Shown here piece by piece: positions 11,385 to 40,906 of a stretch of 64,000 nucleotides of DNA. How positions within the stretch are numbered: the first letter of the stretch is position 1; every line of letters starts with the position of its first letter. Origin of the DNA: Clostridia bacterium (GTDB lineage: Bacteria; Bacillota; Clostridia; Christensenellales; CAG-138). The notes beneath the pieces are model-generated. The model was given only the letters and a program-made list of their open reading frames with translations. It did no database searches and was not told where the DNA came from. The translations under genes and the position numbers were made by a program. The stretch lies in contig JAFXZJ010000055.1 of the NCBI GenBank assembly GCA_017541305.1, positions 25,778 to 89,777 on the forward strand, in the 5' to 3' direction.

Positions 11385-12367
11385 TGTTCGGTATTTGGTC
11401 ACTGTATGCGCTCCTTGCTGGAGCGCTCATAGACGTTTTGACGGGCGACCCGCATTGGCTCCCGCATCCCGTGATGCTGATGGGGAAGCTCATTTCGCTT
11501 CTCGAAAAGCTGCTGCGCCGCGTCTTCCCGAAGACCGCGCGCGGCGAAAACCTTGCGGGAGGCGTGCTGTGGACGATCATGGCGGGGGTCTCCTTCCTCG
11601 TGCCCGCGGCGCTGCTGATGCTGTGTTATCACTTTTCCCATTGGCTCGGATTCGGCGTCGAAAGCATAATGTGCTGGCAGTGCCTGGCGGCGCGTTCGCT
11701 TTATACCGAGAGCATGAAGGTGAAAAAAGCCCTCGATTCCGGGGATATTTCCGCTTCGCGCCGCGCCGTTTCCATGATAGTGGGCCGCGATACGGCCCTG
11801 CTTGACGAGAAGGCGGTCGCCCGCGCGGCGGTCGAGACCGTGGCGGAGAACACCTCCGACGGCGTGATCGCCCCGCTCATATTCCTTGCGATAGGCGGCG
11901 GGCCCCTCGGCTTTTTCTACAAGGCCGTGAACACGATGGATTCCATGCTCGGCTATATCGAGCCGCCCTATAAGCACGTCGGCCTTGTGCCCGCAAAGCT
12001 CGACGACGTTTTCAATTTCATACCGGCAAGGCTTTCCGCCCTCATAATGCTTGTCGGCGGCGGGCTGCTCGGCTTCAGCATCAAAAACGGTTGGCGCATA
12101 TTCCGGCGCGACCGTTATAAGCACGCAAGCCCCAATTCCGCGCAGACGGAATCCGTTATGGCGGGCCTGCTGGGTCTGCGCCTTGCGGGCGACGCTTACT
12201 ACCACGGCGTGCTTCACAAAAAGGATTTCATAGGCGATCCCCTGCGGGAGATCGAGAACGGGGATATCGCCCGTTCCAACCGCGTTATGTTTATGACGGC
12301 GGCGCTTTCGCTCCTGCTTTTCGGGGGGCTGCGCCTTGCCGCATTGGTTATCATCCATGCTTTATAA
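11384..12367 (+). CDS. cbiB: Adenosylcobinamide-phosphate synthase
   Basis: Membrane CobD/CbiB family: ...LTGDPHWLPHPVMLMGKLIS... Confidence 0.85.
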   Translation: MFGIWSLYALLAGALIDVLTGDPHWLPHPVMLMGKLISLLEKLLRRVFPKTARGENLAGGVLWTIMAGVSFLVPAALLMLCYHFSHWLGFGVESIMCWQCLAARSLYTESMKVKKALDSGDISASRRAVSMIVGRDTALLDEKAVARAAVETVAENTSDGVIAPLIFLAIGGGPLGFFYKAVNTMDSMLGYIEPPYKHVGLVPAKLDDVFNFIPARLSALIMLVGGGLLGFSIKNGWRIFRRDRYKHASPNSAQTESVMAGLLGLRLAGDAYYHGVLHKKDFIGDPLREIENGDIARSNRVMFMTAALSLLLFGGLRLAALVIIHAL

Positions 12368-13394
12368 AACAAAAAATCCCCACGGCGGGGATATTTACGA
12401 AGGAAATATCGAGCTTGATTTTTCCGCCAACACCAACCCCTTCGGCACGCCCGAGGGCGTGAAGTCGGCGGTCCTTTCAAGCCTCGGCGCCCTCTCCGCA
12501 TATCCCGATCCATATTGCCGCGGTCTCGTTTCGGCGATAGCGGAGCACGAAAACGTTCCCAAGGAATACGTCCTTTGCGGCGCGGGAGCGGCGGAGCTGA
12601 TCTATTCGTTCGCTTTCGCGGAAAATCCCGGGAAGGCGATCGAGCTTGCCCCGACTTTTGCCGAATACTGTCTGCCGCTTAAGGGCGCGCAAATAAAAAG
12701 GTTCCGGCTCAAGGAGGAAAACGACTTTCGCCCGAACGCGGAGCTCGTCGATTTCATCGGTGAGACCGAGCCCGACGCCGTGTTCCTGTGCAATCCCAAC
12801 AACCCGACGGGGCAAATGGCCGATCCCGCGCTTATCGAAGCCGCCGCAGAAAAATGCCGCGCCATCGGCTGCCGTCTCTTCCTTGACGAATGCTTTATGG
12901 ATCTTGCCGACGCGCCGTCAAGCTTTGTGCCGCGCCTTGCGGAATTCACGAACGTATTGGTGCTCAAGGCCTTCACCAAGGGCTTCGGCATGGCGGGGCT
13001 GCGCCTCGGTTACTGCCTGAGCGCGGATGAAGCCCTGCTCGGCCGCATGTCACGCGCCGTTCAGCCGTGGAACGTATCGATCCCGGCGCAGGCGGCGGGC
13101 ACGGCCGCCCTGAAAGAAACCGCCTTTCTTGAAAGAACGCGCGCGCTTATAAAAGCGGAGCGCCCGCGGATAGCCGAAAAGCTCAAAAAGCTCGGCATCG
13201 CGGTTTTCGGTTCCGACGTGAATTTCCTGCTTATAAAGGCCCCGCCCGAACTCGGCGAAAGGCTTCTTCAAAGGGGCATAAGGATAAGGGACTGCTCGAA
13301 TTTTCACGGCCTTGCAGAAGGCTTTTACCGCATAGCCGTGAAGCTTCCCGAAGAAAACGACCGACTGATCTCGGCGATCAAGGAGACGCTATGA
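12357..13394 (+). CDS. cobD: L-threonine-O-3-phosphate decarboxylase (class I/II aminotransferase family)
   Basis: [14 protein letters not shown]... with an aminotransferase fold. ATG at 12357 is more plausible than the track start at 12336. Confidence 0.8.
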
Positions 13395-19470: not shown

Positions 19471-19471
19471 T

Positions 19472-27654: not shown

Positions 27655-28170
27655 TCAGCTTCTGCTTCTGCTTTTGCCGAACAGCGCAAGCGCTGCAATA
27701 CTCACAACGACGGAAGCGATGATGATGATGATCGTCTTTCGCGAGAGTTGGCCTTTGCTCCAAAGTATAATAAGATACACGACGCCTGCGATCGCCGCAG
27801 CAGCGAAAAATACCGTCAGGATCAAAAGGGCTATCCCGATCTTTGTGTTTTTTTCATCCTCTCGCCTAACAAGCGCTCTTCGATGCTCTGCTTTTTCCTG
27901 CAGTTCCTTTAGCCGCTTTTCACATTCCGCCTGTTTCTCTCTTGCTCCGGAGACAAACGGAATTGAAGCTGTCAGACGGATCGCGTCCTCGCATCCCGCC
28001 GTTGTATTATGCTGCATCAAACGGTCCGCCTCCTGTAGGATCCTGCCGTACTTCCGTACGTCCGCCAAATCAGCGTCAAATGCATTTCCGCAGGAATCAC
28101 AGACCATAAGTCCGGACTCAATCACGATATGCATATCTCCCCCACAGATGGGGCAGACGAATGGTTTCAT
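27655..28170 (-). CDS. Zinc-ribbon (CPICG...CDSCG) membrane-anchored protein, 171 aa
   Basis: N-terminal double CxxC, helical linker, two C-terminal TM helices. Confidence 0.6.
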   Translation of the reverse strand: MKPFVCPICGGDMHIVIESGLMVCDSCGNAFDADLADVRKYGRILQEADRLMQHNTTAGCEDAIRLTASIPFVSGAREKQAECEKRLKELQEKAEHRRALVRREDEKNTKIGIALLILTVFFAAAAIAGVVYLIILWSKGQLSRKTIIIIIASVVVSIAALALFGKSRSRS

Positions 28171-28199: not shown

Positions 28200-28670
28200 A
28201 AATTGATTTTGTTACAAGAGCCGGACCGCTGTTTTATTATTCGCGCGACCGCCTAACGGTGGATAAGGCAAGGGCTTCACCCGCTTAAGATCAGCGCCTT
28301 CGGCGAGCCTTTCAAGATAGATGTATTTTTCGTTGTCACTAAGCTGCTTTCGTGATCTATCAATAACGTATTCCTTGTTATTTTTATAAAGACTGATTAT
28401 GAATTTGCAGCCGTATTTTCTTACTGTCTTTTCTGAATAAACGTGCGGATTGACGCCGGTGCACAGACGTTCCGCCCTTCCAAAGAAGTTTCAAGTCATT
28501 ATAAAATGGTCCTTCTCCTTCTTATCCCAGGGCACATCTCTGTGATAGGAATCGAGCAATTCATTCAATGCATTCAGCGTTCTGTCACGCCTTAACAGAA
28601 TCTTGTCGACAACGCATGTGATGACGCCAATAAGTATCGAAACAGCCGTCAGTATTTCTCCGATGAGCAT
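28200..28670 (-). pseudogene. Decayed paralog of the small membrane protein at 32955..33431
   Basis: The intact 59-codon N-terminal ORF 28491..28670 (MLIGEILTAVSILIGVITCVVDKILLRRDRTLNALNELLDSYHRD) aligns to MELIGTGIAALSLMLTTATFIWDKLLSRKQRTLETLNKLKDSYHRE. Downstream DNA still encodes ...YVIDRSRKQLSDNEKYIYLERLAEG in another frame (compare YLIDQRRKQFKDDEYYISIERLAEKF). Confidence 0.5.
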
Positions 28671-28687: not shown

Positions 28688-30328
28688 TTATGTAATCAGA
28701 ATCGCGATTGTGATTGCAGCAATAATGACTGCCGCAACAATCAAGAGGACAATCCTCTCCCTCTTGTTTTTCTTCTTTGCATTTATCTCTTCTTCTTCTT
28801 TCTCAGCTTTCAGAGACTCGATCTTTTTTCGGCAGATCTCTATCTGATGCTCCGAATCCTTCCATCCGGGAATCGACTCAAATATCTTGATGGCTTTTTC
28901 ATAATCGTCAATATAATGACTACCCATTTTGCTGAAAGCCGCATTATAGAAAGAATCCATATATACAGCATTGGCTTTTTCTCGGCAGTCCGCAGCACGC
29001 TGTTCGGCATCCTTGAATCCGTTGATGCCAAGAAATGCTTTTTCGGCCTGCTTAAAATCATATTCGGACTTAGCGCAATTTGCGAGACCGTCAGCCTTGC
29101 GATAAAGTATGGCATTATTATACCCTATAAGCTCATCTTGCAGCTTTTTATCACCAAAACGGAGTGCTTTTTTGTAATTACTGAGTTGTTCAAAAGCATC
29201 TGTGCGGGAAACAAGATCGGCTCTTGTTGTGACCTTGAGTTCCGCCATAAGCTTAGCAACATATGCTTCCGCATTCTCAGGATCCTGATCCAGCACCTTT
29301 TCGGCGTATTCGTCCGCGCTCTGCCACTCGCCATCCTCCAGATACATGAAAGCGCGCTTCAAAAGCGGCGCTATGTTCGCACTGCCGCCAGTGACCACGG
29401 TGGTTTCCTTTACGACCGGCTTCGATTCGCCGTCACGGACGATCTTCTTGATTCCGCGGATAAGATCCTGCATGAAGCCAAGCTTACTCATATCCTGAGC
29501 CTGCAGATGGGAGAACTCGTCGGGCAGATCGTAGGGATCCATATCGCGGTAGGCGGGGATGAGCACCTTCTTGCCGCCGCTCTGCTTGACAAGCGAAAGG
29601 TAGCGGCTCCATTCGTTCTTTACCCACACCGCTTTGAAATGCTCCGGCTTGGTGCCGAGCACGACCATGACCTTTGCGCTGTTCAGCGCGGCGAAAATAT
29701 AGGGCTCGTAGGCCGTGCCGAGCTTATCCTCCAGTGTGATGCGCGAGAAGAAGACCTTGAAGCCCTCCTGCGTGAGCTGATGGTAGAGGTCGTTCGCCAG
29801 CACGGAATCCATCGTTCGCCTGCCGTTTGCATCCGTTTCCTTATAGCAAATGAAAACATCGAACGGCTCTTCCTTCTGCGATATGGCAAGGATGCCCTTT
29901 TGAATCTCATTTATGGCGTTTGCTTCCGCTTCATAGAGGGATCGCTGATACCCGTCAGCGTACCGCAGGGCGGATTTGTAGTTGTCGTCATCAAAAACGG
30001 AAGTGAATTGCGCGCGGTTGACCGTAGGCATACGTTTGCGTGTCGCAGGATCTTCCACGTATTCGATACCGTAGCGGCAGAGCACCAGCGACCAGTAAGC
30101 CTCCGCGTCCGTCGTGTCCTCGTTCAGTATCTGCTCGTAGATCCCCGCAGCCTTGTCGAACTCGTTGTTCCGGCGAAAATGGTTCGCGCGGTCGTATAGA
30201 TTTTCCTTACGCTCGGAGTCAAGCTTTGGCAAAGTCTGCTTAGAACCACAGTACTCGCACTCCGCAACGGTAGAGCCCTTGTCGATGATCAGGTCGCCCC
30301 CGCACATTTTGCATTTGAAAATGGACAT
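28688..30328 (-). CDS. Zinc-ribbon-TPR-TIR-domain protein with C-terminal TM anchor (TIR paralog 1)
   Basis: N-terminal MSIFKCKMCGG...CEYCGS. TIR block FDVFICYKETD...FFSRITLEDKLG...AALNSAKVMVVLGT...AVWVKNEWSRYL. TPR-like helices. C-terminal IVLLIVAAVIIAAITIAILIT. Confidence 0.8.
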   Translation of the reverse strand: MSIFKCKMCGGDLIIDKGSTVAECEYCGSKQTLPKLDSERKENLYDRANHFRRNNEFDKAAGIYEQILNEDTTDAEAYWSLVLCRYGIEYVEDPATRKRMPTVNRAQFTSVFDDDNYKSALRYADGYQRSLYEAEANAINEIQKGILAISQKEEPFDVFICYKETDANGRRTMDSVLANDLYHQLTQEGFKVFFSRITLEDKLGTAYEPYIFAALNSAKVMVVLGTKPEHFKAVWVKNEWSRYLSLVKQSGGKKVLIPAYRDMDPYDLPDEFSHLQAQDMSKLGFMQDLIRGIKKIVRDGESKPVVKETTVVTGGSANIAPLLKRAFMYLEDGEWQSADEYAEKVLDQDPENAEAYVAKLMAELKVTTRADLVSRTDAFEQLSNYKKALRFGDKKLQDELIGYNNAILYRKADGLANCAKSEYDFKQAEKAFLGINGFKDAEQRAADCREKANAVYMDSFYNAAFSKMGSHYIDDYEKAIKIFESIPGWKDSEHQIEICRKKIESLKAEKEEEEINAKKKNKRERIVLLIVAAVIIAAITIAILIT

Positions 30329-30348: not shown

Positions 30349-31050
30349 TTATTTATTCAGTTTGCAAAGCCTGTTCCTCTCCGAAAGAACTGACTGGGCT
30401 TTTTTGCATAGCGGCATTATGCTCTCGTTATCGCCATCGACTATTGCGCGCTGAATCTCCTGCATCAGGGCGTTGAGCTCGCCTTCGGCTTCGGCTGTCG
30501 CGTCATTTGAAACGGGATCGCAGTAGTTGAGCGCGTCTGCAAGCTTTTTCAGTTCCGCCCTTGCCTCTTCGTTTTCGCAGCCGGCCGCAAGGCTGTTGCC
30601 GATAGAGCGAAGCTCCCGGATCTTCTCGACGTCCTTTTTCAATACCGTATCCTGCCGCTCGATCTCATCTCTTGTGGCGTCGGTCGCAACGGCCCCGAGG
30701 ATTGCTACGGCAAAGAGAAGAATGAACACAAGCACGAAAGGCCACGCGGGAATGCCGGGAATGGCAGCAAGGCCCATTGCAAGAAAGCTCAGTATCAGCT
30801 GTACCGTCGCATAGATACTACCAACGCGAGCGATCGGAAAACCGTAAAAGCGGCTCTTTGCCGAATCGCCCTTGCCGAAAGCAACTGCAAATATGAGCAG
30901 ACTTGTAAGTATCGCGAGAAGGCCAAACCCGTAGCCCACCCAGAACACGGAGTTGTGTTTGAAAGGAAGCACGAATGCAAGAACGTTATAAACGACCAGG
31001 ATTACTGCGACCGTGATGATCGCGCGTATCATTTTTTTGCTGAGCTTCAT
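30349..31050 (-). CDS. 4-TM membrane protein with cytoplasmic coiled-coil tail
   Basis: Hydrophobic N-terminal half and coiled-coil C-terminal half. Gene is adjacent to (1-bp gap) the SPFH gene. Confidence 0.55.
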   Translation of the reverse strand: MKLSKKMIRAIITVAVILVVYNVLAFVLPFKHNSVFWVGYGFGLLAILTSLLIFAVAFGKGDSAKSRFYGFPIARVGSIYATVQLILSFLAMGLAAIPGIPAWPFVLVFILLFAVAILGAVATDATRDEIERQDTVLKKDVEKIRELRSIGNSLAAGCENEEARAELKKLADALNYCDPVSNDATAEAEGELNALMQEIQRAIVDGDNESIMPLCKKAQSVLSERNRLCKLNK

Positions 31051-31051
31051 A

Positions 31052-32950
31052 TTATTCTCCCTTCTTAAAGCCGCAGTCCGGGCAGAACTTGCTTGTTATG
31101 TCCTTTGCTCCGCATTCCGGGCAGATCCAACCCTTTTTTTCCTCAGGCTTCTTCGCGCCGCAATTCGGGCAGAATTTTGATTTGATTCCATTCGTTCCGC
31201 ATTCGGGGCATGTCCAGCCTGCCGTCTCATCTGGCTTTTTTGCTCCGCATTCGGGACAGAATTTGCTTGATATGTTTGTTGTTCCGCATACAGGGCACGT
31301 CCAACCGACTTTTGGTTCCGGCTTCTTTGCCCCGCAGTCCGGGCAGAACTTGCTTGTTATGTTTCGGGTCCCGCATTCGGGGCACGTCCAGCCTGCAGGA
31401 ACAGGCGTGCCTTCTGCGACAGAGGTCTGCTCCTGGGCATTCGGGTTTATCCCATTCATTATATTGCCTATCTGCGGAGCCATTGCGCTCATTGCAGCCA
31501 TACCCACGCCAAGACCCATGATATCACCCATCACACTGCCTCCGCCGACGCTGACTCCAGAGCCCATGTTGCCGATGCCCTCGGCGTATGCCTTCTGAAC
31601 TTCCGTCTGCAGGACGTCCTTCTGGTTGTATCCCTTTGCGGCCATGATCTCCGCCTCGGTCAAGCCATGCACCCGCGCGGCCTGTGCTTCCGCCTGTGCC
31701 TCAATGATCTTGCGCTCAGCCTCACGCCTTGCGACCTCTGTCTTTGTCGTTTCCCCCTGCAGGACTGCTTCGCGCCTTGCCGCCTCGACCTGCGCCTTTG
31801 CCTGCTCCTCAACGGTCTTCACAGTCGCCTGTGCCTGAACCACGCGGGTCTGCAGAACGATGGTATGCAGTTCACGGATGCGCTTGAAATTCGGATCGTC
31901 CTCGGGAAGGACGATATGCGTAACATAAAGCTGCGGAACGGTGAGGCCGTACTCCTCAAAGCCCTCTGTTACCTTTTGACGGAGCGAATCGGAGATGATC
32001 TCCAGCTTTTCATCCACCTCGAGTATGTCGATATCATTCGTCTTTATTACCGTTGGTAGATTGGTTTTGACTGCGCTTGCTATCATCGGACGGAAGGAGG
32101 CCTGCAGGCTCTTTGTGAATCCGGCACTGTCGCGATCTTCCCAAGCGACGCCGCTCGTCGTTCCCACAAGCTTAATAAGCAGTTTCCTCGAATCGCCAAC
32201 GGCAATGTTCATTTCTCCAGATGCGCCGATCTCAAGAGGCGTCCCGGTCAGAGGATCGATGAAACGCACCTTATCAGGCGTACCCCATTTGATGGCCATC
32301 TGAACGGTCTTGTTTATGAAATAGATCTCGCTGTGGAAGGTCCTCTCCGCGTTTGTGGGAAGCTTATACAGCTTTTCGAGCATCGGCAGCTGCTGTGTCT
32401 CAAGCGTGTAACGGCCCGGCCCGAACAGGTCGAGCGCCTGTCCGTCACGGAAGAATACCGCTTCCTGACTTTCATGGACGATGAGCTGGGAGCCGTAGTT
32501 GAAGTCCTCAACGGGATGCTTCCAGATGAAGGTAGAGTTGTCGCCCTCGTACTTGATTATGGATGCAAGGCCCTCCGCCTTGATGCGCTCCTTCTCAACG
32601 CGCTCGGCGACGTCGTTGTCATGGTCGCACACGGGGCAGACGTAGTGCGAAGCGGCCTTCGAGGTCTGGAGCCGGACGCCGCACTGCGCGCAGGAGAACT
32701 CGACAGTCTTGTCCTGCTCTGCCATCGTATTGATGGGCTCATGGCAGACGGGGCATTTAGCGCCGGCACCCTTGGATTGATCAAATACCACGTTGTTCCC
32801 GCAGTGCGGGCAAACGCGGCTTGCCAGCTTGTCCGTGCGGACATCAATAGTATACCCGCACGCACAGCTGATCTTTTTACTTGCGAAGAACCCAGCCTTC
32901 GCCTCAGCATAGCGCCCGCAGTTGGGGCATTCGATTACGAATTTTGCCAT
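31052..32950 (-). CDS. Multi-zinc-ribbon SPFH/Band-7 (PF13421-like) protein with four tandem C-terminal zinc-ribbon repeats
   Basis: Three N-terminal CxxC pairs. SPFH core IIKYEGDNSTFIWKHPVEDFNYGSQLIVHESQEAVFFRDGQALDLFGPGRYTL. Coiled coil. Four repeats of GWTCPECGT..I.SKFCPDCGAKKPE. Confidence 0.75.
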   Translation of the reverse strand: MAKFVIECPNCGRYAEAKAGFFASKKISCACGYTIDVRTDKLASRVCPHCGNNVVFDQSKGAGAKCPVCHEPINTMAEQDKTVEFSCAQCGVRLQTSKAASHYVCPVCDHDNDVAERVEKERIKAEGLASIIKYEGDNSTFIWKHPVEDFNYGSQLIVHESQEAVFFRDGQALDLFGPGRYTLETQQLPMLEKLYKLPTNAERTFHSEIYFINKTVQMAIKWGTPDKVRFIDPLTGTPLEIGASGEMNIAVGDSRKLLIKLVGTTSGVAWEDRDSAGFTKSLQASFRPMIASAVKTNLPTVIKTNDIDILEVDEKLEIISDSLRQKVTEGFEEYGLTVPQLYVTHIVLPEDDPNFKRIRELHTIVLQTRVVQAQATVKTVEEQAKAQVEAARREAVLQGETTKTEVARREAERKIIEAQAEAQAARVHGLTEAEIMAAKGYNQKDVLQTEVQKAYAEGIGNMGSGVSVGGGSVMGDIMGLGVGMAAMSAMAPQIGNIMNGINPNAQEQTSVAEGTPVPAGWTCPECGTRNITSKFCPDCGAKKPEPKVGWTCPVCGTTNISSKFCPECGAKKPDETAGWTCPECGTNGIKSKFCPNCGAKKPEEKKGWICPECGAKDITSKFCPDCGFKKGE

Positions 32951-32954: not shown

Positions 32955-33431
32955 TTATTCCTCCGTTTGAATATTGTCTGTTGAATTTGTTTTTTCCGAC
33001 GGGCTGTTCGTCTCCTGCCCGTTTGCGGCGCCGCGCGATCTGCGGAATTTCTCGGCGAGCCTTTCTATGCTGATATAGTATTCGTCATCCTTGAACTGCT
33101 TCCTTCTCTGGTCGATCAGATACACCTTGAAATCATCGTATAATCTGATTATCAACCTGCTTCCGCTGCTCTTCACGGTGCGGTAGGAATAGTACCCCGA
33201 AAGAACGCCCGAGCAGAAGCTCTCAAGCTTCCCGAAGTAATTGACGCAGTTTCTGTAATAATCCGAATTATCCTTCCTGTTCCTTCCGGCGATCTCTCTG
33301 TGATAGCTGTCCTTGAGCTTGTTGAGCGTTTCAAGCGTCCTCTGCTTTCTCGAAAGCAGCTTATCCCAGATAAACGTTGCCGTCGTCAGCATGAGCGATA
33401 AAGCGGCTATACCGGTTCCGATCAGTTCCAT
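32955..33431 (-). CDS. Small N-terminally membrane-anchored protein (158 aa)
   Basis: One N-terminal TM helix and a charged C-terminus. Paralogous decayed copy at 28200..28670. Confidence 0.55.
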   Translation of the reverse strand: MELIGTGIAALSLMLTTATFIWDKLLSRKQRTLETLNKLKDSYHREIAGRNRKDNSDYYRNCVNYFGKLESFCSGVLSGYYSYRTVKSSGSRLIIRLYDDFKVYLIDQRRKQFKDDEYYISIERLAEKFRRSRGAANGQETNSPSEKTNSTDNIQTEE

Positions 33432-33472: not shown

Positions 33473-36145
33473 TCAGTTTTGCATTGCCCTTATCCGCGAA
33501 TCGAGCTGCGCTATCTCCGCCTCGAGCTCCCTTCTGCGCTTGCCGGTAAAGAGGCCCTTGAGGTTTTTGAGCTCCGCTTCGGCTTCGGCACGGCGCTTTA
33601 AAAGGGTCTCGAGCAGAAGCCTGCGCTCGTTTTCCGCACGCTCCGCGGCTTCCCGGCGCTCACGCTCTGCGCGCTCAGCGGCTTCCCGGCGTTCACGCTC
33701 TCTCTGCTCATCTTTGGACTTTTGCTCCTGTTCAAGAGTATCGATACCGTCGAAAAGCTTCCAGTCCTTTGTATTGCATTGTCCATAATCAAACCCATTA
33801 CTTTTCCGAGTCTCAATGTACTTAGTCGCAACAACGGTGCCGTCTGATTTCAATCCGACTGTTCGTCCTGGCGCCGCAAATACCGCGACAATATCCGTCC
33901 AGTTCTTGACGTTGCACTGACCGTTAGTATTACTTCCTGCAGCTACTACAGTTCCATCCTCCTTAAGGCCTACAATATGATAATCGGAATCATCCTTGTT
34001 AGCCCATCCGACATCACTGGATCCGGCAATCGATAGGATGCCTTTCCATTTTTTGACCTGTGAGAGGAACCCGAAGTCGTCGGAACACACAACACGTCCG
34101 TCCTCTTTTAAGCCGATGATGGACGAATACGGTTCGTCGTAGAAAACGGAAACAGCGATGATGTCCGCCCATTTTGAAACCCGGTTTTTAAGCTTGTTGA
34201 GACCTTTGACAATATCTTCATATTCTTCATCATCCTCATCGTACTCGATGGAGTGATACGGAGAGACGACGACCTTCTTATCGTTCTTTATACCGACGAT
34301 CAGATCATAGGTGCTTGCAACTGAAACAATATTATTCCAACTCGCAAACGCTTCTGTATCGTCTGGATCGGTAGAAACGACCGTTCCATCCTTTCTGATA
34401 CCGAATACATCAGATTCGGAGGCAAACACATCTGTAATATCACGCCAGGCGACGGTCTTAGTATCCCCGGCGCAAACAGCCGAACCGTCGTTTCTCAGTC
34501 CGATAAGGAATCTATCTCCGGCAGCTAACTTGACTATGCCTCGCCATTTATCAATGTCAAAACTCTTCTTCGAGGCGAAAGCAACCGTACCGTCGCCTCT
34601 TAATCCGGCGGTAAAACTGTTACCGGCAGCTATCGAAACGATGTCTGACCAATCGCCGACTTCGCATTGGCCATCATAGGAAGAATACAATTCGCCGCGC
34701 AGACGGGAATAATCGTTTTGGACATGTTCTTTGTATTTTGTGGCAAATACTTTACCTTGGATATTCAATGCGACCGTATGGTTTTTTCCACAGCAGACCA
34801 GGTTTTGAGCCGAAGCATACTTGGCTCTCAAATCGATAAGGCGCTGCTTCCCGGCAGCAATGCTTTTTTCTTCCTGCTCGATTCTTGCCTTCTCCCTATC
34901 TTTCTGTTCCTTTTCGATTCTTGAGAACCATTCGGCTGTCTCCTTGTCTGCGAAGCGTTTAGCGCGTTCGTATTCCTTTCCCTGTTGTATCAAGGAAGAA
35001 AAATTCTGCTCAAAATCTTCCTTAGACCTCACGTTTGCCTCTGCAAGCATAATGCCCAGATAGGCTCTGCTGTTCTCCGGGTCGATATCGAGCACCTTGT
35101 TGAAATATCCCTCGGCTTGCCCGAACTCGCCCTCCTCAAGGAAGAGCTGCGCCCGCTTGAGCAGCGAACCCACGCTCGGACCCGCGTCCGTCTGCTGTAT
35201 CACCTGCTGAATTATCCGCTGCTCCGACTGCGCCTTTTCGGGCTCGTCCTTTCCGATCACCTTTTTGATGCCGCGGATCAGGTCCTGTATAAAGCCGATC
35301 TTTGCCATATCATAGCTTTGCAGAACGGAGAGCTGCTCGGGAAGATCGTATGGATCCATGCCCTTGTAGCATGGCAAAAGGAGCTTTGAGCGATCCTTGC
35401 GCATCAGCGCGAGAAAACGGCTCCACTCGTTCTTGACCCAGACGGCGTTGAAATATTCCGGCTTCGAGCCGATCGCGATCATAACCTTTGCGGAATTGAG
35501 CGCGGCGAAGATATAGGGCTCGTACTCGGAGCCTACCTTATCCTCGAGCGTTATCCTCGAGAAGAACACGCGGTAGCCTTCGCTTGTGAGCTGATAGTAG
35601 ATCTCCTGCGCGTCGATGCTGTCCTTTGTACGCTCCTTGGTGTTGTCGTCGGTCTCCTTATAGCAGATGAAAACGTCGAAAGGCTCCTCGTTCTGCGAGG
35701 TGGCGAGTATGCCCTTCTGTACCTCCGCGATCTTCGCTCCGTCCTTCTGATACTGGCGGCGGGTGATGCCATCGGAGTTTTCGAGCGCGGCGATGTAATC
35801 CACGTCCTCAAGGAAGCTGTCAAAGCTCGCCCTGTGGCAGGTGGGGATGTATTCATACGTGTTCGGATCCTCAACGTACTCTATACCGAACCTGCACAGC
35901 GCGCAGCACCAGTGCGCCTCGGCGTCGGCGTCGTCCTCACGAACGATGTTCTCGTAGATCGCAAGCGCCTTATCGAATTCGCCCGCGCGCCTGAAATGAT
36001 TTCCCCTGTTGAACAGCGCCGCCCGCTGCTCGTCCGATACCTTAGGCAGAGTCATCGTCGACCCGCAGTATTCGCAGGTCCCAAAGGTCTTTTCTTCATT
36101 GAGGACTATGTCCCCACCGCACATTTTGCATTTGATAATCGCCAT
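33473..36145 (-). CDS. Zinc-ribbon-TPR-TIR protein with RCC1-like beta-propeller repeats and C-terminal ERERREAAERA coiled-coil (TIR paralog 2)
   Basis: N-terminal MAIIKCKMCGG...CEYCGS. TIR block FDVFICYKETDDNTKERT...AVWVKNEWSRFL. Seven to eight RCC1-like repeats such as GLKEDGTVVAAGSNTNGQCNVKNW. Duplicated ERERREAAERAE segment. Confidence 0.8.
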   Translation of the reverse strand: MAIIKCKMCGGDIVLNEEKTFGTCEYCGSTMTLPKVSDEQRAALFNRGNHFRRAGEFDKALAIYENIVREDDADAEAHWCCALCRFGIEYVEDPNTYEYIPTCHRASFDSFLEDVDYIAALENSDGITRRQYQKDGAKIAEVQKGILATSQNEEPFDVFICYKETDDNTKERTKDSIDAQEIYYQLTSEGYRVFFSRITLEDKVGSEYEPYIFAALNSAKVMIAIGSKPEYFNAVWVKNEWSRFLALMRKDRSKLLLPCYKGMDPYDLPEQLSVLQSYDMAKIGFIQDLIRGIKKVIGKDEPEKAQSEQRIIQQVIQQTDAGPSVGSLLKRAQLFLEEGEFGQAEGYFNKVLDIDPENSRAYLGIMLAEANVRSKEDFEQNFSSLIQQGKEYERAKRFADKETAEWFSRIEKEQKDREKARIEQEEKSIAAGKQRLIDLRAKYASAQNLVCCGKNHTVALNIQGKVFATKYKEHVQNDYSRLRGELYSSYDGQCEVGDWSDIVSIAAGNSFTAGLRGDGTVAFASKKSFDIDKWRGIVKLAAGDRFLIGLRNDGSAVCAGDTKTVAWRDITDVFASESDVFGIRKDGTVVSTDPDDTEAFASWNNIVSVASTYDLIVGIKNDKKVVVSPYHSIEYDEDDEEYEDIVKGLNKLKNRVSKWADIIAVSVFYDEPYSSIIGLKEDGRVVCSDDFGFLSQVKKWKGILSIAGSSDVGWANKDDSDYHIVGLKEDGTVVAAGSNTNGQCNVKNWTDIVAVFAAPGRTVGLKSDGTVVATKYIETRKSNGFDYGQCNTKDWKLFDGIDTLEQEQKSKDEQRERERREAAERAERERREAAERAENERRLLLETLLKRRAEAEAELKNLKGLFTGKRRRELEAEIAQLDSRIRAMQN

Positions 36146-36188: not shown

Positions 36189-36614
36189 CTAAACTCTACG
36201 ATCACGTTCTAAGTCTATTGCTATCTGCTCTGTCTCCTGAGTGGAACACTCAAAAACATACAGTTTATGTAACAGCTCCGAATCTGAAGGATAGGATGCA
36301 CCTCGTCTGTTAATTTCGATTTGTATTTCAGACTTAAGAGATTGGTTCTTAAAGAAAGTATCGTATAATTCGACTCTCTCTTTTGTCATTTGATCTTTGC
36401 TGTTAATGTACTCCTGCATTAGATCATGAAGAAATAACGGGTCATAAGCTTTAATGTTAGCAATTGTATCATCCGCCCTTTTAAGAGTATTATTCACATA
36501 ATTGGTGAACCTCTGAATGTTTTCAATGCCAAAGAACACAATCTTGCAATCATCACAAAGAAAAGCTTCGTTCTTCCATTCACACGGTTTATTGCAACTT
36601 GGGCAGTTATACAT
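36189..36614 (-). CDS. Small zinc-ribbon protein (CPSCN...CDDC), 141 aa
   Basis: Low-GC ORF between TIR paralogs 2 and 3. Confidence 0.45.
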   Translation of the reverse strand: MYNCPSCNKPCEWKNEAFLCDDCKIVFFGIENIQRFTNYVNNTLKRADDTIANIKAYDPLFLHDLMQEYINSKDQMTKERVELYDTFFKNQSLKSEIQIEINRRGASYPSDSELLHKLYVFECSTQETEQIAIDLERDRRV

Positions 36615-36760: not shown

Positions 36761-39196
36761 CTAATCTCCAACCTTATTATCTAACCTGACCCACATTGCA
36801 GGACGAATAGCAGCATAACCATAACCGTTATTGCCCGAAACTGAGCAATGAGGGCTAATCCAACCTTCATCCGTGACTTTTGTTGCTTTTGTTGGATCTT
36901 CACCCGGTGTTCTCAGCCACCATCCGATCCTTGCATCGTTAGCTTTTCCGCCAACCCATTTGGCCTTGCCATTTACGATTTTATATGGAGAAACATATGA
37001 GTTATAAGCTTCTGCCTCCGATATTGTATAATATGTTGGGGCACATAATCTTTCAGTTTCTGACCGATAATACTTCTCAACATCCAAGACGCTAAGAAGA
37101 AACACCTTGTCGGTTGTGCCTTTACCTGGGGTAGAACTATACTTAGGGTTTTTATCAGCAGAAACCTTAGATGCTACAATACGGCTACGTTCTTCCGAAG
37201 TAAATGCGGTGATATAGAAAGAATTATTCAGCCATTTTCTCAATGAGCAAGTTTCCCATGTAACGCTCGTGACACAAAAGTTATACTGCTTATAGTCTAA
37301 TGCATATTTGCTGATGAGTAGCATACAATCATTCTCTACTGCGTACACCTGCCACTCGATAGGTTCGGAAGGGCTCCCTTTTTTTTGAATGTATCTACCA
37401 AACATATACGAAATAGGCGGAGCTTCTGGAAAAAGCTCTTTCACTGCAAGAGCAACATCTCGCCTTTTTTTATAAATATCAAGTGCTTCATTATAGCTAT
37501 ATGCGCTTGTAGTATTGTTGTGATTTGTCTCAGATAGAGTTTCAAGTTTTTTCGCAAACGCGGTTGCTTTTTCAAGATCATGCTCGATTTCTTCTCTTGA
37601 TGCATAGCCTTGAAGTTTTGTTTCTAACTGGTTAAGTCGTGAACGAACGGAATCCTTCTTCCTCTCATAATCAGAAAGCAGATAATCTATTTGTTTCTTC
37701 TCTTTACCAGCAAAAATGCCGAGTTTTGATTTCTGCGCTGTAAGCTCTGTCTGCTTAGATGAGTAGTCGCGAATCTCATTATTCATCAGCCCAATCTGTT
37801 CCTTAATATCATCAAAACAGATTAGTATTCCTTTAATGAATTCTATTCTTTTATTCGCAGACGAAATGCGTTCCTTGAGAGTAGGCGCACTAGGATTTGC
37901 TCTCATGAGTGCATCAGCAACTAGCTCAACTATGTTGTTCTCTTTAAACGCCTCTTCATCTTTAATGCGTTCATTTATCACATCAATATAGTTGCTTAGT
38001 TCTGATACAATGCTTGGTTCACCAAAACGTGCTATTTTTAAATAATTATAGTTTCCTTCAAACGGTCTCTTGCATCCTGCAAGTTCTGTTTGATGGGATA
38101 CTCTCAACTCGGCCATCAGTTTCACGAGATAAGCTCTAGCATTCTCCGGTTCATAGTCAAGAACCTTTTCAGCATACTCGTCTGCGTTCTTCCATTCCCC
38201 GTCTTCGAGATACAGAAACGCACGGTTCAAAAGCGCAGAAGTATTTGCACCAGGCGAACTTTGGACAAACGAATGCACAGGAGCTATTTCTTTCGTATCT
38301 TCCTTTGGCAGCAGTTTCTTTATTGCACGAATAAGATCCTGATCTGCGCCGACCTTGCCCATATCCTGAGATTGGAGTTTCGAAAACTCTTTGGGCATAT
38401 CATATGCGTCGATATCCTTGAAGCAAGGAATGAGCCGTTTCGTCTTGTCCTTTTCCATGAGCTTGAGGAAGCGGCTCCATTCGTTCTTGACCCAGACCGC
38501 ATTGAAATACTCATAATCAGTTCCAAATACAAGCATGATCTTTGCGCTGTTGAGCGCAGCAAAAACATAAGGCTCATACTCCTGCCCGAGCTTGTCCTCC
38601 AGCGTTATCCTTGAGAAAAACACACGATAGCCGGCATCGTTCAGCTTATCGTAGATATCTTGCGCAAGCACTGAGTCTATGGTGCGCTGCCCGACCTCTG
38701 CCGTTTCCTTATAGCAGATGAAAATATCATAGGGCTCTTCTTTACCCGAAACTTCAATTATGCTTTTACGCAGTTCCTCTATCCGCTTGGCTTCCTCCCG
38801 ATAGACCTTACGGGAAAGAGCGTCGGAATTCTCCATGACTTGTTCAAAATCCTTGTCGTCCATCACGCTGTCAAAGCTCGAGCGGTGACAGGTCGGGATC
38901 TTTTTTCCTGTGGCAGGATCATCCACATACTCTATACCGTAGCGGCAAAGCACGAGACCCCAGTAGGCCTCTGCTTCCTCGGGAAAGTCCGCAACGACGG
39001 ACTCAAAAACACCGGCGGCCTTGTCGAACTCGCACGCCGCACGCAGCCTGTTCGCCCTCGCAAACAGCGTCATTTTTTTGTCATTATCAGCTGTGGGAAC
39101 TGTCTGAACGCTGCCGCAGTATTCGCATTCCGCTACTGTTGAGCCTTCCGTCAGGATCAGATCGCCTCCGCACATTTTGCATTTGATAATCGCCAT
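36761..39196 (-). CDS. Zinc-ribbon-TPR-TIR protein with long coiled-coil and C-terminal DUF6273-like domain (TIR paralog 3)
   Basis: Same N-terminus and TIR core as paralogs 1 and 2. C-terminal motifs IEWQVYAVEN...LRKWLNNSFY...KVFLLSVLDVEKYY...GWWLRTPGEDP...AIRPAMWVRLD. Confidence 0.8.
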   Translation of the reverse strand: MAIIKCKMCGGDLILTEGSTVAECEYCGSVQTVPTADNDKKMTLFARANRLRAACEFDKAAGVFESVVADFPEEAEAYWGLVLCRYGIEYVDDPATGKKIPTCHRSSFDSVMDDKDFEQVMENSDALSRKVYREEAKRIEELRKSIIEVSGKEEPYDIFICYKETAEVGQRTIDSVLAQDIYDKLNDAGYRVFFSRITLEDKLGQEYEPYVFAALNSAKIMLVFGTDYEYFNAVWVKNEWSRFLKLMEKDKTKRLIPCFKDIDAYDMPKEFSKLQSQDMGKVGADQDLIRAIKKLLPKEDTKEIAPVHSFVQSSPGANTSALLNRAFLYLEDGEWKNADEYAEKVLDYEPENARAYLVKLMAELRVSHQTELAGCKRPFEGNYNYLKIARFGEPSIVSELSNYIDVINERIKDEEAFKENNIVELVADALMRANPSAPTLKERISSANKRIEFIKGILICFDDIKEQIGLMNNEIRDYSSKQTELTAQKSKLGIFAGKEKKQIDYLLSDYERKKDSVRSRLNQLETKLQGYASREEIEHDLEKATAFAKKLETLSETNHNNTTSAYSYNEALDIYKKRRDVALAVKELFPEAPPISYMFGRYIQKKGSPSEPIEWQVYAVENDCMLLISKYALDYKQYNFCVTSVTWETCSLRKWLNNSFYITAFTSEERSRIVASKVSADKNPKYSSTPGKGTTDKVFLLSVLDVEKYYRSETERLCAPTYYTISEAEAYNSYVSPYKIVNGKAKWVGGKANDARIGWWLRTPGEDPTKATKVTDEGWISPHCSVSGNNGYGYAAIRPAMWVRLDNKVGD

Positions 39197-39217: not shown

Positions 39218-39409
39218 TTATTTTTCCGTTATCTCCATATGACGGAGCGCGAACTCCAACCCTAACAAAATGATCTCGTTTCGCGTGCGCCCGGTATCCT
39301 GCGCGACCTTATCGACGTCGTGCAGCATATCCTTTGGCATACGAACCGAGATCACCTGTGATTCCTCCGTGTATCTTTTCGGAGTTATTATCAGCTTCTG
39401 CTCTGTCAT
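39218..39409 (-). CDS. Ribbon-helix-helix (CopG/antitoxin-like) DNA-binding protein, 64 aa
   Basis: MTEQKLIITPKRYTEESQVISVRMPKDMLHDVDKVAQDTGRTRNEIILLGLEF. GGAGGT RBS precedes the ATG. Confidence 0.55.
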   Translation of the reverse strand: MTEQKLIITPKRYTEESQVISVRMPKDMLHDVDKVAQDTGRTRNEIILLGLEFALRHMEITEK

Positions 39410-39821
39410 GCAGTACCTCCGTGTCCTTGTTCCATTGTAACACAATTGTATTCTGTTTGCAATACCCAATTATATTTAATTTCGATTAATAGTCATTTTC
39501 CATCTCCGCTATGCAAGTATAAGGGCCACAGAGATCTACACTACTCTAAAAAACGCCCCGAAGCGTAGCTGCCAAAATCGATTTGCCTGAAAGTTGTGTT
39601 GAAATCTTCGATTCGCCTCATTACGGCATTAAATCGGTGTAATAGTGTGCAGCAGTCTACTTCTGCCTCGTCAACCCAAGATCATACTGCTGATAATCCG
39701 GCAGCTCATATTCCATACGGATATCGAACTGCGCGTGGTGCTTACTCTTCACCGGGGGATCGGGATTTGTCAGCGCACCCTTGCCGACTCAGTTGAACAA
39801 AAGTGTCATGCTATGTTGACG

Positions 39822-40166
39822 TCATTGCTTCTCAATAAAATCCGATAGTATCTTCAGCAGTTCGGGGACGTCGTTTTTGACGGTGTCATAAATGATGGTG
39901 AGATCAACACTGCCGTATTCGTGGACGATCCTGTTGCGCAGACCCTTGACCGCCCTCCACGGGATCTCCGTGTTCTGTGCTTTGAAATCCTCGGAAAGCT
40001 TGTCCGCGCTTTCCGAGACCTGAATAAGCCTGAACATGGCGGAGTCGGCCAAAACTTCGTCTTTTTCAAGCTCCTCTTTCGTAATACGCGCGGTGTGAGC
40101 GACGATGAAGCCAAGATCGTTAATGATCCGATTCACATAGTAGCGGTCATTTTTGACATTATCCAT
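39822..40166 (-). CDS. hepT: HepT-like (DUF86) RNase toxin
   Basis: RNRIVHEY motif (Rx4HxY). Overlaps the upstream mntA by 8 nt. Confidence 0.8.
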   Translation of the reverse strand: MDNVKNDRYYVNRIINDLGFIVAHTARITKEELEKDEVLADSAMFRLIQVSESADKLSEDFKAQNTEIPWRAVKGLRNRIVHEYGSVDLTIIYDTVKNDVPELLKILSDFIEKQ

Positions 40167-40629: not shown

Positions 40630-40906
40630 AGCATTCACCTCGGTATGATTATAGCATACTTGCGTCCGCTTCGCAAGCAACAATACGCAACAATTGCGCA
40701 TTATATGCAACAATTACACGCAATTGCTGCGTTTAATGTTGCATATTCGTGCGCAAAGGCTGCGTATATCGGCTGATTTAGCCTCACAGATTAGTTTTGC
40801 ATTATGCAGCCAAACGTATCCCCGTTGCTCCGCAAGAGCTCACATTTTTCATTCCCGTATCGCCATTTGGAATCAATTGCTAGCTAACGAAAGGATTCCC
40901 CGAGTT

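Follow-up and report, generated by a model that had tools for sequence, protein, structure and literature searches.

What does an SPFH protein that carries zinc ribbons at both ends do in the middle of an array of TIR genes? SPFH proteins (flotillins, stomatins, HflK/C, and YdjI) are ubiquitous, and their bacterial clients are mostly unknown. The gene in question lies in the 64-kb window, that is, the whole stretch of Clostridia bacterium DNA that was analyzed, and was read in a preliminary description as a module of the Bacillus subtilis ydjGHI type fused into one gene. Here, the gene and its neighbor are assigned to the core of a cassette that is conserved in gut and rumen Clostridia and made up of three families: the SPFH protein, a translationally coupled four-transmembrane (4-TM) protein, and TIR receptor-like proteins. 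The most likely role of this cassette is that of a conflict sensor system at the membrane, directed against phages or other invaders, and not PspA-type envelope repair; to this reading we assign a probability of roughly 0.6.

The zinc-ribbon SPFH protein and its membrane partner

The earlier assignment of the 632-aa protein (SPFH632) to the SPFH family was borne out by Pfam, with a PF13421 (Band_7_1) match at E=2.4e-36 and 125.8 bits against a cut-off of 24, and a Band_7 match that runs as far as aa 386 (Table 1). The number of zinc ribbons, three N-terminal and four C-terminal, was likewise reproduced by a Cys-pattern scan. The N-terminal ribbons are all complete and are covered by weak Zn_Ribbon_TF and Zn_ribbon_6 matches. 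Their Cys pairs number six, of which five are CxxC and one is CxC, where only three CxxC pairs had originally been counted. A linker of ~40 aa without a domain match leads from these ribbons to the SPFH core, and a weak FloT (flotillin) match follows at aa 364-450. The C-terminal ribbons (aa 523-539, 552-568, 581-597, and 610-626) belong to a region for which DZR (E=6e-15) and Zn_ribbon_3 (E=2.4e-14) matches were obtained. As had been claimed, the repetition extends to the DNA: the period is 87 nt, or 29 codons, in frame (TRF, 31194-31396, 2.3 copies, 76% matches; self-blastn pairs across 31061-31396, 72-82% identity), so the array is a coding repeat rather than a non-coding one in the wrong frame.

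Table 1. Features of the cassette region, with positions in the window
Feature	Position	Strand	Evidence
ZnTM171: zinc ribbon, helical region, two C-terminal TM helices; occasional accessory	27655..28170	-	Pfam, TM scan
TIR546: ZnR, TPR-like helices, TIR, TPR, C-terminal tail-anchor TM (aa 526-544)	28688..30328	-	TIR_2 E=1.3e-11
TM233: 233 aa, 4 TM helices and cytoplasmic four-helix bundle	30349..31050	-	TM scan, AF2, synteny
SPFH632: soluble YdjI-type (PF13421) SPFH protein, 632 aa	31052..32950	-	Pfam, TM scan, homologs
SPFH632 aa 523-626: four tandem 29-aa zinc-ribbon repeats	31055..31390	-	DZR + Zn_ribbon_3, TRF, self-blastn
SPFH632 aa ~352-450: E/A-rich helical (flotillin-like coiled-coil) region; aa ~451-520: Gly/Met-rich low-complexity linker	31391..31897	-	weak FloT match, sequence
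SPFH632 aa 148-351: SPFH (Band_7_1) core	31898..32509	-	Pfam
SPFH632 aa 8-31, 47-69, 87-108: three N-terminal zinc ribbons	32627..32929	-	Cys-pattern scan
DUF4760 gene: variable slot between TIR890 and SPFH gene	32955..33431	-	PF15956 E=6.6e-13
TIR890: ZnR-TPR-TIR-TPR module, C-terminal RCC1 propeller, coiled coil, no TM	33473..36145	-	Pfam, TM scan
141-aa protein: N-terminal zinc ribbon, between two TIR genes; variable cargo	36189..36614	-	sequence
TIR811: TIR paralog, C-terminal DUF6273 (C-type-lectin-like) domain, no TM	36761..39196	-	Pfam, TM scan
Small ribbon-helix-helix protein, directly upstream of first TIR gene	39218..39469	-	RHH_1 E=1.4e-4

SPFH632 is not a chance ORF: its homologs fill more than 8000 protein clusters, often over the full length, and are named "SPFH domain-containing protein" by NCBI. 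Among the homologs, the number of ribbons is 0, 1, or 3 at the N-terminus and 0-5 at the C-terminus. No TM segment was found in SPFH632 by a scan for hydrophobic 19-mers (mean Kyte-Doolittle of at least 1.6), and a PDB sequence search returned no solved relative.

The membrane partner, TM233, does begin 1 nt from the SPFH632 stop (junction TAA-t-ATG), as described previously; its gene is located downstream and not upstream, both genes being on the minus strand, and the GGAG ribosome-binding site ahead of its start falls within the SPFH632 3' end. TM233 carries the conserved motifs SDPVS and, at the C-terminus, ERNRxCKLNK. Its AF2 model (pLDDT 89.7), built like the other AF2 model on an alignment of database homologs, contains the four TM helices plus a helical bundle, and a fold search with it found only generic helical bundles. 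With the exception of a spurious FHIPEP hit, Pfam gave no match at E<0.01 for TM233 and no family in 120 listed homologs; neither a TPM domain nor NfeD (PF01957) was among the results. The protein has 3863 representative clusters, and its divergence correlates with that of the SPFH protein (rho=0.75, n=119).

In B. subtilis, YdjI is soluble, without a TM segment, and a membrane protein of its own operon is needed for its recruitment (PMC8581546, PMC11237479). It is composed of an SPFH domain, a low-complexity region, and one C-terminal zinc finger, while YdjG combines two zinc ribbons with a TM segment and an NTF2-like domain related to YpeB, and YdjH has a TPM domain and TM. A function of this operon is the recruitment of PspA to foci in the membrane during envelope stress. 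SPFH632 resembles YdjI/SamI (PF13421, COG4260) in its subfamily, its lack of a TM segment, and its layout of SPFH domain, helical low-complexity region, and C-terminal zinc binding. The locus could accordingly be taken as a PspA-type envelope-stress module, in which the fused gene and its membrane partner unite the functions of YdjG, YdjH, and YdjI, leaving the TIR genes as bystanders or secondary clients. The common Pfam family, the recruitment of soluble YdjI by operon partners, which SPFH632 and TM233 parallel, and the zinc ribbons with which YdjG begins all favor this. However, because YdjI already has a C-terminal zinc finger, the C-terminal ribbons represent a native feature amplified to four copies and not a YdjG fusion, and the three extra N-terminal ribbons have no counterpart in YdjI. 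Compared with pspA-ydjGHI (samGHI), the cassette is without pspA, the NTF2-like and TM parts of YdjG, and the TPM protein YdjH; its membrane partner comes from an unrelated family of 4-TM helical-bundle proteins, and its constant neighbors are TIR proteins. Thus, the YdjI-type character of the SPFH protein stands and the fusion does not.

Conserved synteny of the SPFH, TM233, and TIR genes

In an SPFH-anchored set of 80 genome loci from diverse Clostridia (985 ORFs), only three families recurred: SPFH, TM233 (66 loci), and ZnR-TPR-TIR (116 genes in 69 loci). The next commonest family was found in 8 of the 80 loci, and no PspA-like or other fourth recurrent family was present in them; the flanking genes changed in nearly every locus. 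In 66-72 of 80 loci, the TM233 gene directly followed the SPFH gene in the same orientation, and 114 of the 116 TIR genes were co-directional. Every one of the 24 loci flanked by 8 kb or more on both sides contained a TIR gene. When the search was anchored reciprocally on the TIR gene, SPFH or TM233 was found in 62 of 80 metagenome loci and in 30 of the 33 that were 12 kb or longer. These loci were the ones that best matched a single paralog, TIR546, and the figures may not extend to all TIR paralogs. The usual gene order in these loci was SPFH-TM-TIR. The association was seen across several families and orders of Clostridia, and the cassette is distributed very widely, being near-ubiquitous in gut and rumen Clostridia. 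The SPFH protein and its TM partner almost always share an operon-like cassette with TIR receptor-like proteins. The link to the TIR genes, which had been the most speculative point of the preliminary description, therefore emerged as a synteny conserved in both directions. A separate observation, a negative correlation between TIR546 identity and SPFH identity (rho=-0.33), was set aside, since paralogy and the use of two sampling schemes both act as confounders.

These data bear on two of the alternatives. Against a PspA-type module, no PspA-like family recurs in 80 loci, the TIR family is the invariable partner, and many cassette SPFH proteins carry no ribbons at all. As a homology claim this reading is largely refuted, and as an explanation of the locus it is quite improbable. 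It could also be that an ordinary SPFH-TM233 operon is merely located in a hotspot for TIR and mobile defense genes, without functional coupling, since the locus does take up unrelated cargo (DUF4760 or YaaC, AbiH, SIR2_2, and toxin-antitoxin genes). Coincidental co-location is nevertheless disfavored, and we consider it highly improbable: the three families alone recur while the flanks differ, the TIR genes are co-directional and tightly spaced, the association is recovered from both anchors across families and orders, and the lone viral contig with the cassette retains the triad.

That contig was the only one of 2.9 million viral contigs with the cassette. INPHARED contained no match to the TIR module, and on plasmids the matches were limited to distant PF13421 proteins and a single degenerate variant, carried by Butyrivibrio pNP21. 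A phage- or plasmid-borne element was rejected on these results. The near-absence from phage collections fits a host system and provides no direct phage link.

The zinc ribbons are dispensable for the cassette. All 49 cassette SPFH partners of the second locus set match PF13421, 32 of 53 SPFH partners in TIR-anchored loci are without zinc ribbons, and in 29 of 49 TIR-linked partners a SHOCT tail takes the place of the ribbons. A model in which one ribbon docks one TIR protein is unsupported, given the many ribbon-less partners and the lack of a significant correlation between zinc-ribbon count and TIR gene count (rho=0.33, p=0.12, n=24).

TIR paralogs and their variable domains

As stated earlier, the SPFH632-TM233 pair lies within a TIR array: three TIR_2 (PF13676) genes, all on the minus strand, flank it on both sides, with scores of 43.5-45.5 bits against a cut-off of 28. 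TIR546 starts 20 nt past the TM233 stop and is preceded by a GGAGG ribosome-binding site. It is an ectodomain-less allele of a predicted single-pass TIR receptor family. Of the 120 closest TIR546 homologs, 119 have a TM segment whose N-side is rich in K/R (positive-inside signature), and the C-terminal part beyond it, with a median of 263 aa, is predicted to be outside. No remnant of a lost ectodomain was found downstream of TIR546. A frameshifted DUF4760-like pseudogene sits downstream of this gene.

Across loci, cassettes contain one to five TIR paralogs, each built on a ZnR-TPR-TIR-TPR module, and paralog number and C-terminal domains differ between close relatives. Among 102 TIR family members, the C-terminal domains included RCC1 (35) and DUF6273 (34), as well as LRR, Ank, and TPR. 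The variable ones (RCC1, DUF6273, LRR, and Ank) are putative ligand-binding domains, often beyond the TM helix. In the TIR part, a WVKNEW motif was present in 91 of 116 family members, and W235, N238, E239, and W240 were invariant in 52 TIR sequences. The W-x3-E spacing, with Glu four residues past Trp, matches the plant SxWCxxEL pattern, and E239 is, by motif position, a candidate catalytic-type Glu. The AF2 model of TIR546 (pLDDT 83) matched the TIR domains of SARM1, MyD88, MAL, SPARTA, and TIR-STING, with target-normalized TM-scores of about 0.6-0.72 against stand-alone TIR-domain chains; a PDB sequence search with TIR546 found designed TPRs only. None of the eight cassette-region proteins, TIR proteins included, matched a PADLOC v2 model, and the only NCBIfam hit for the TIR proteins was a weak, sub-threshold match to ThcB4 (Thoeris TIR; 25.5 bits versus a cut-off of 220). 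Identity with a known defense system was rejected on these grounds.

Self-blastn detected no second copy (template repeat) of the TIR811 3' end in the 64-kb window, and the idea of a diversity-generating retroelement (DGR) at work on TIR811, the DUF6273 gene of the window, was rejected. In five related loci (L087, L094, L107, L114, and L162), the DUF6273 end is a DGR variable repeat. The repeats are 126-127 nt long and 80-86% identical, with 89-100% of mismatches at adenines of the template repeat, and L087 additionally carries bAvd and RVT_1 genes.

Accessory genes and genomic context

The DUF4760 gene is cargo, not core; in strains with a 98% identical SPFH protein, a YaaC gene occupies its slot. 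Genes intercalated in other loci, some of the Abi or toxin-antitoxin type, include AbiH, SIR2_2, AAA_21, RES, and ParE. The 141-aa protein had no Pfam, NCBIfam, or PADLOC match and no homolog in the 80 loci, and occurs in close strains, while a ZnTM171 homolog was found in 6 of the 80 loci. The ribbon-helix-helix protein is a possible regulator whose membership in the cassette is uncertain, and a promoter scan placed a promoter-like site at its gene (39496-39469). The G+C content is 0.39-0.54 in the cassette versus about 0.56-0.62 across the first 16 kb of the window, and a HepT/MNT pair and a UPF0236 transposase are located upstream of the cassette.

A further alternative is a role outside immunity. 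The very wide presence in Clostridia would also fit a housekeeping or developmental membrane-signaling role, or one in sensing at the cell surface, in which the SPFH platform organizes receptors for stimuli such as glycans of host or diet, neighbor cells, or developmental cues, and the TIR domains act as assembly or signaling modules without abortive infection. The lectin-like and propeller ectodomains and the failure of known defense models to match are in keeping with this, as is SamGHI (YdjGHI) of B. subtilis, which is described as a stress-sensor complex affecting differentiation. On the other hand, the strict conservation of the catalytic-type Glu suggests that the TIRs are enzymatic, close relatives differ in paralog number and C-terminal domains, and DGR hypermutation of the sensor domain, Abi/TA-type intercalated genes, and a low-G+C island are hallmarks of conflict systems. 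We regard non-immune sensing as unlikely.

Proposed mechanism and significance

For the conflict sensor system favored here, a mechanism can be proposed. By analogy with YdjG/H-YdjI and SPFH-NfeD, the 4-TM protein would anchor an oligomeric SPFH assembly on the inner face of the membrane, and this platform would gather membrane-anchored and soluble TIR sensors. A ligand on the variable domain, or a membrane perturbation felt by the platform, could then cause the TIR domains to assemble, and the assembled TIRs, judging from TIR biology, would consume NAD+ or make a nucleotide signal, so that the infected cell is arrested. The earlier suggestion that the SPFH scaffold localizes or activates the TIR proteins is a reasonable one.

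A bolder version is possible, if doubtful. The cassette may be a bacterial analogue of Toll-like-receptor signaling, with single-pass receptors (outer lectin-like, propeller, or LRR domains, DGR-hypermutated in some lineages), an enzymatic TIR, and a flotillin-like SPFH platform on a 4-TM anchor, which would detect phage or foreign ligands at the surface or membrane and respond with NAD+-based growth arrest. If so, it would be a new, very widespread membrane-organized immune class in gut Clostridia and a striking functional parallel to Toll-like receptors in lipid rafts.

To our knowledge, the bacterial TIR systems described to date have soluble partners and dedicated effectors, and our search of the literature on SPFH proteins with TIR, phage defense, or immunity found no description of the cassette. 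The cassette ties one SPFH subfamily to defined candidate clients, the TIR receptors, so that what bacterial SPFH platforms organize can be put directly to the test. It further suggests that the abundant, poorly studied gut and rumen Clostridia possess a large and so far undescribed family of membrane-associated TIR sensors, some of them with hypervariable lectin-like domains predicted outside the membrane. Should invaders be sensed at the envelope, this would be a new logic for bacterial immunity, with surface or membrane sensing in place of cytoplasmic sensing.

Comparison with known systems

The animal Toll-like receptors in flotillin-rich rafts are similar in formal architecture only: in both, a ligand-binding domain of repeat or lectin type lies outside, a single TM helix connects it to a cytoplasmic TIR, and an SPFH-family scaffold sits at the membrane. 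The orientation here is inverted (TIR N-terminal, type II), the ectodomains are unrelated, there is no evidence of common architectural descent, and the bacterial TIRs are probably enzymes.

In SPFH-NfeD pairs (HflK/C-FtsH, QmcA-YbbJ, YuaG(FloT)-YuaF, and YqiK-YqiJ), an SPFH gene is also tightly coupled to a small multi-TM partner, and the expectation for the SPFH oligomers is that they surround their clients as a platform or cage at the membrane. However, TM233 has no NfeD or other Pfam match, SPFH632 itself lacks a TM or hairpin, and the clients of the cassette would be TIR proteins and not a protease.

Variable C-lectin-type sensors coupled to effectors such as TIR are known from the DGR-diversified sensors of multicellular bacteria (PMC10907252) and from NTP-dependent diversifying conflict systems (PMC7159879), and in L087 and four other related loci a genuine DGR variable repeat forms the sensor end. 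Unlike both, the cassette has an SPFH/4-TM pair in place of a STAND, MoxR, or vWA NTPase core. Its hosts are unicellular gut and digester Clostridia, its sensors are often single-pass membrane proteins, and the window itself is without a DGR.

Thoeris and other TIR defense systems (ThsB, TIR-STING, SPARTA TIR-APAZ, and TIR-SAVED) share the TIR fold, the catalytic-type Glu, and the island context, and several TIR paralogs per locus recall the multiple thsB genes. Cassette loci contain no ThsA-like or other conserved effector gene comparable to the SIR2/SLOG ThsA or Macro-TM effectors of Thoeris. Instead, the cassette TIR shares one polypeptide with a ZnR/TPR module and variable sensor domains, and its constant partners are the SPFH protein and the 4-TM protein.

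Identity of the zinc-ribbon SPFH protein

The preliminary description had assigned the 632-aa zinc-ribbon protein (SPFH632) to the SPFH family, and a family-level search bore this out. PF13421 (Band_7_1), the family of Bacillus subtilis YdjI/SamI, matched aa 148-351 (E=2.4e-36; 125.8 bits against a cut-off of 24), and the double zinc ribbon family DZR (6e-15) and Zn_ribbon_3 (2.4e-14) were also hit. A Cys-pattern scan recovered the described arrangement of three complete N-terminal ribbons (aa 8-31, 47-69, and 87-108) and four tandem C-terminal ribbons at 29-aa spacing (aa 523-626). The DNA of the C-terminal ribbons is an 87-nt repeat, detected by Tandem Repeats Finder at 31194-31396 (2.3 copies, 76% matches) and by self-blastn as pairs over 31061-31396 (72-82% identity). 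Because this repeat is in frame, the ribbons are coding and not noncoding repeats read in the wrong frame. An E/A-rich helical stretch, within which aa 364-450 weakly match FloT, and a Gly/Met-rich linker lie between the SPFH core and the C-terminal ribbons. No TM segment was found in SPFH632 by a hydropathy scan, and the ~40-aa linker from the N-terminal ribbons to the core gave no domain match and holds no NTF2-like domain.

Taken alone, SPFH632 is a new, unremarkable member of a known and very large family. It matched more than 8,000 protein clusters, more than 100 of them at full length with 63-98% identity, and its relatives are named "SPFH domain-containing protein [Oscillospiraceae]" at NCBI. 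Scanning species-representative genomes yielded 347 loci, nearly all in Clostridia. Homologs have 0, 1, or 3 N-terminal and 0-5 C-terminal ribbons; 3+3 is the commonest combination, followed by the window's own 3+4. It is the surroundings, not SPFH632 alone, that decide the interpretation.

Cassette genes and upstream features in the window
Feature	Position	Strand	Length or location
TIR546 (TIR paralog)	28688..30328	minus	546 aa
TM233 (4-TM partner)	30349..31050	minus	233 aa
SPFH632 (zinc-ribbon SPFH protein)	31052..32950	minus	632 aa
TIR890 (TIR paralog)	33473..36145	minus	890 aa
TIR811 (TIR paralog)	36761..39196	minus	811 aa
RHH (CopG-like) gene	within 39218-42877		upstream of cassette
HepT-like/MNT nucleotidyltransferase toxin-antitoxin pair	39822-40166, 40159-40713		upstream of cassette
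UPF0236 transposase	41438-42877		upstream of cassette

The 4-TM partner and comparison with YdjGHI

The membrane partner, TM233, had been placed upstream of the SPFH gene; on the coding strand it is downstream. The two genes meet at TAA-t-ATG, with GGAG within the SPFH 3' end, and the gaps between the three core window genes are 1 nt and 20 nt. TM233 has four hydrophobic helices by hydropathy. In its AlphaFold2 model (57 homologs; pLDDT, 89.7), a cytoplasmic four-helix bundle continues from the fourth TM helix. Conserved motifs are SDPVS and, at the C terminus, ERNRxCKLNK. None of the 120 homologs listed has a Pfam family, and apart from one spurious source label all are unnamed or "hypothetical." A profile search reached 3,863 representative clusters; of the 150 listed, almost every one is a ~230-aa protein that stands alone.

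The locus had been read as ydjGHI fused into one gene, of which the kinship with YdjI stands but the fusion is not supported. YdjI has a C-terminal zinc finger and is recruited to the membrane by YdjG and YdjH (PMC8581546). YdjG combines two zinc ribbons with a TM segment and an NTF2-like domain related to YpeB, and YdjH is a membrane protein with a TPM domain (PMC11237479). Both the NTF2-like domain and the TM segment of YdjG are missing from SPFH632, and its three N-terminal ribbons are extra compared with YdjI. TM233 lacks a TPM domain and hence is not YdjH; unlike the partner in SPFH-NfeD pairs, it is not NfeD either. Given the published descriptions of the YdjI operon, the C-terminal ribbons are an amplified native feature rather than a captured YdjG. 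A PspA-type repair role is improbable for the pair.

Conservation of the SPFH/4-TM/TIR cassette

Conservation was analyzed in the 80 best loci from one species-representative genome scan, with ORFs called mechanically, and in the 80 best metagenome loci from one scan with the TIR family, which is biased towards the TIR546-type paralog. Searches with the window proteins found the TM233 family in 72 of the 80 genome loci, always co-directional and mostly directly 3' of the SPFH gene, with a gap usually below 100 nt (~1.5-3 kb in six loci); loci without it were mostly ended by a contig edge. The ZnR-TPR-TIR protein was found in ~70 of the 80. Unbiased all-against-all clustering of the 985 ORFs in these loci gave exactly three recurrent families, namely, SPFH (73 loci), the 4-TM protein (66 loci), and TIR (116 genes in 69 loci, 114 co-directional). 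The next most frequent family occurred in only 8 of the 80 loci; therefore, the flanks vary between genomes and the triad is constant.

The preliminary description's placing of SPFH genes beside TIR genes held in both directions of the synteny search. At least one TIR gene was present in each of the 24 loci that extend 8 kb or more to both sides, and an SPFH or 4-TM gene was found in 62/80 TIR-anchored metagenome loci, including 30/33 of those of at least 12 kb, typically in the order SPFH, 4-TM, TIR on one strand. SPFH proteins and 4-TM proteins diverge from their window counterparts in a correlated way (rho=0.75, n=119), and thus the pair travels as a unit. The triad was unchanged where the SPFH gene has no N-terminal ribbons (L068-L080), and it was kept on the sole viral contig found. 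Cultured carriers include Pseudoflavonifractor capillosus An827 (L036), Eubacterium xylanophilum ATCC 35991 (L056), and Ruminococcus flavefaciens YAD2003 (L058). Against such counts, mere co-location of the SPFH pair and TIR genes is very unlikely.

A PF13421 SPFH gene was also observed on the 20-kb Butyrivibrio fibrisolvens plasmid pNP21 (NZ_CP146965.1, 6700-10053; locus L165), followed by an unannotated 4-TM gene fragment and a zinc-ribbon/TPR-like protein in which no TIR was detectable. The arrangement looks like a variant of the cassette or a degenerate form of it.

The cassette is not defined by its zinc ribbons. In the TIR-anchored set, 32 of 53 SPFH partners lack any ribbon, and a Pfam scan of 49 found PF13421 in all 49, a C-terminal SHOCT in 29, and DZR ribbons in 16. 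Many cassette SPFH proteins in the metagenome set (L084-L163) are ribbon-free, ~380 aa long, and end in SHOCT (e.g., L087:7876-9030). PF13421 is the family to which SHOCT is most often joined, and oligomerization is the function proposed for SHOCT (PMC3581485). Since some partners have SHOCT and others ribbons, the two tails look like assembly or adaptor modules that can replace each other. Ribbon number had no significant relation to TIR gene number.

Domains and predicted topology of the TIR proteins

The N-terminal ~380 aa of the three window paralogs form a conserved module common to all of them, in the order zinc ribbon, TPR-like helices, TIR domain, and TPR, with TIR_2 scores of 43.5-45.5 bits (cut-off, 28). 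A WVKNEW motif occurs in 91 of 116 family members, and a 52-sequence alignment shows no variation at W235, N238, E239, or W240. The W-x3-E spacing is that of the motif carrying the catalytic Glu in enzymatic TIRs, as in the plant SxWCxxEL. By this motif spacing, rather than by superposition, the conserved Glu is predicted to be of the catalytic type. An AlphaFold2 model (pLDDT, 83) matched the TIR domains of SARM1, TIR-STING, SPARTA, MyD88, MAL, and plant RUN1/L7, and the TIR domain is intact as judged from motif conservation and predicted-fold matches.

Past the shared module, 102 members were scanned: 35 have RCC1 propellers and 34 have DUF6273, and a few have a BspA-type LRR or ankyrin (one hit each, alignment A4) or extra TPR. 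Pfam hits to a CIDE-N domain were observed in five TIR-family members (best E=2.8e-6; L001-L080, alignment A4). DUF6273 is a C-type-lectin-like ligand-binding fold, present in phage receptor-binding proteins targeted by diversity-generating retroelements (DGRs) (PMC10743442).

The TM topology of all TIR proteins was predicted from hydropathy. A TM-type segment is present in 46 of 111 TIR paralogs of the genome loci; TIR890 and TIR811 have none. TIR546 has a C-terminal tail-anchor helix (aa 526-544), and the window copy ends 2 aa beyond it. Among its 120 closest database homologs (P0241-P0360), 119 have a strongly hydrophobic segment past aa 380, followed by a median of 263 residues, mostly the DUF6273 domain. 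The 15 residues before the segment contain on average 7.2 Lys+Arg, versus 1.9 in the 15 after. By the positive-inside rule, this K/R-rich N side predicts that the homologs cross the membrane once, with the TIR module in the cytoplasm and the lectin-like domain outside. The window TIR546 is an ectodomain-less allele. A database protein of 99% identity has this form too, and no remnant of an ectodomain was found downstream of TIR546. The predicted layout of the homologs, with an outer domain, one TM helix, and a cytoplasmic TIR, is similar to that of Toll-like receptors. A non-immune surface-sensing role of the cassette is considered unlikely.

Hypermutation in related loci

Repeat pairs of 126-127 nt with 80-86% identity were found in five related loci (L087, L094, L107, L114, and L162), with 89-100% of the mismatches on adenines of one copy, the template. 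In L087, the variable copy occupies the final 127 nt ahead of the stop region in a TIR-TM-DUF6273 gene (10001..12454) that adjoins an SPFH/4-TM pair; next come bAvd, the template repeat, and a reverse transcriptase gene (RVT_1) (10001-14435 overall). L087 thus holds a textbook, complete DGR. No DGR-type repeat was found in the window.

Genomic context of the cassette

The cassette is island-like in character. Its region has a G+C content of 0.39-0.54, lower than the ~0.56-0.62 of the window's first 16 kb. The slot between TIR and SPFH genes holds a DUF4760 gene in the window (158 aa, 32955-33431) but a YaaC-family gene (375 aa, L081:8846-9973) in strains with a 98% identical SPFH protein, in which the neighboring TIR paralog has 839 aa instead of 890. 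Genes intercalated in the cassettes of other genomes encode AbiH, SIR2_2, AAA_21/AAA_15, DUF2971, RES, ParE, HNH, and CAP12-type TIR.

Several further features of the window were observed. Downstream of TIR546 (~28200-28670, minus strand) is an apparent second, frameshifted DUF4760-like gene, of which a 59-aa ORF resembles the N terminus of the intact protein and the remainder is in another frame. A 1.27-kb inverted repeat (51794-53057 and 57197-58463, 88% identity) may represent two mobile-element copies or a duplicated gene. Direct repeats of ~235 nt (17601-17831 and 20368-20600, 87% identity) flank a stretch of low G+C content (18001-20000, 0.43 versus ~0.59 nearby), with tandem-like repeats at 19993-20242; this region looks like an inserted element.

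Proposed mechanism and comparison with known systems

The identities, topologies, tight operon structure, and mutual fidelity of the three families across changing contexts were computed here. We put at roughly 60% the probability that the cassette serves as a sensor system for conflict or immunity, organized by the SPFH pair. In such a system, by analogy with the YdjG/H-YdjI and SPFH-NfeD pairs, the 4-TM protein would hold an oligomer of the SPFH protein beneath the membrane. The SPFH platform may then collect TIR sensors, several of them predicted to be membrane-anchored themselves. Either a ligand bound by the variable domain or membrane damage detected through the platform would permit TIR self-assembly, which the platform could either restrain or promote. 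NAD+ consumption or signal synthesis would presumably follow, as in other TIR systems.

The SPFH/4-TM/TIR-receptor cassette matched no PADLOC model, and no description of it was found in the searchable literature. It is not categorically new, since every part has precedents in TIR-based conflict systems and SPFH-partner pairs. In multicellular bacteria, C-lectin sensors that are diversified by DGRs and linked to TIR or other effectors have been proposed to sense antigens, in work that makes no mention of Clostridia or Firmicutes (PMC10907252). The core of those systems is a STAND or MoxR NTPase, whereas the cassette has an SPFH partner instead.
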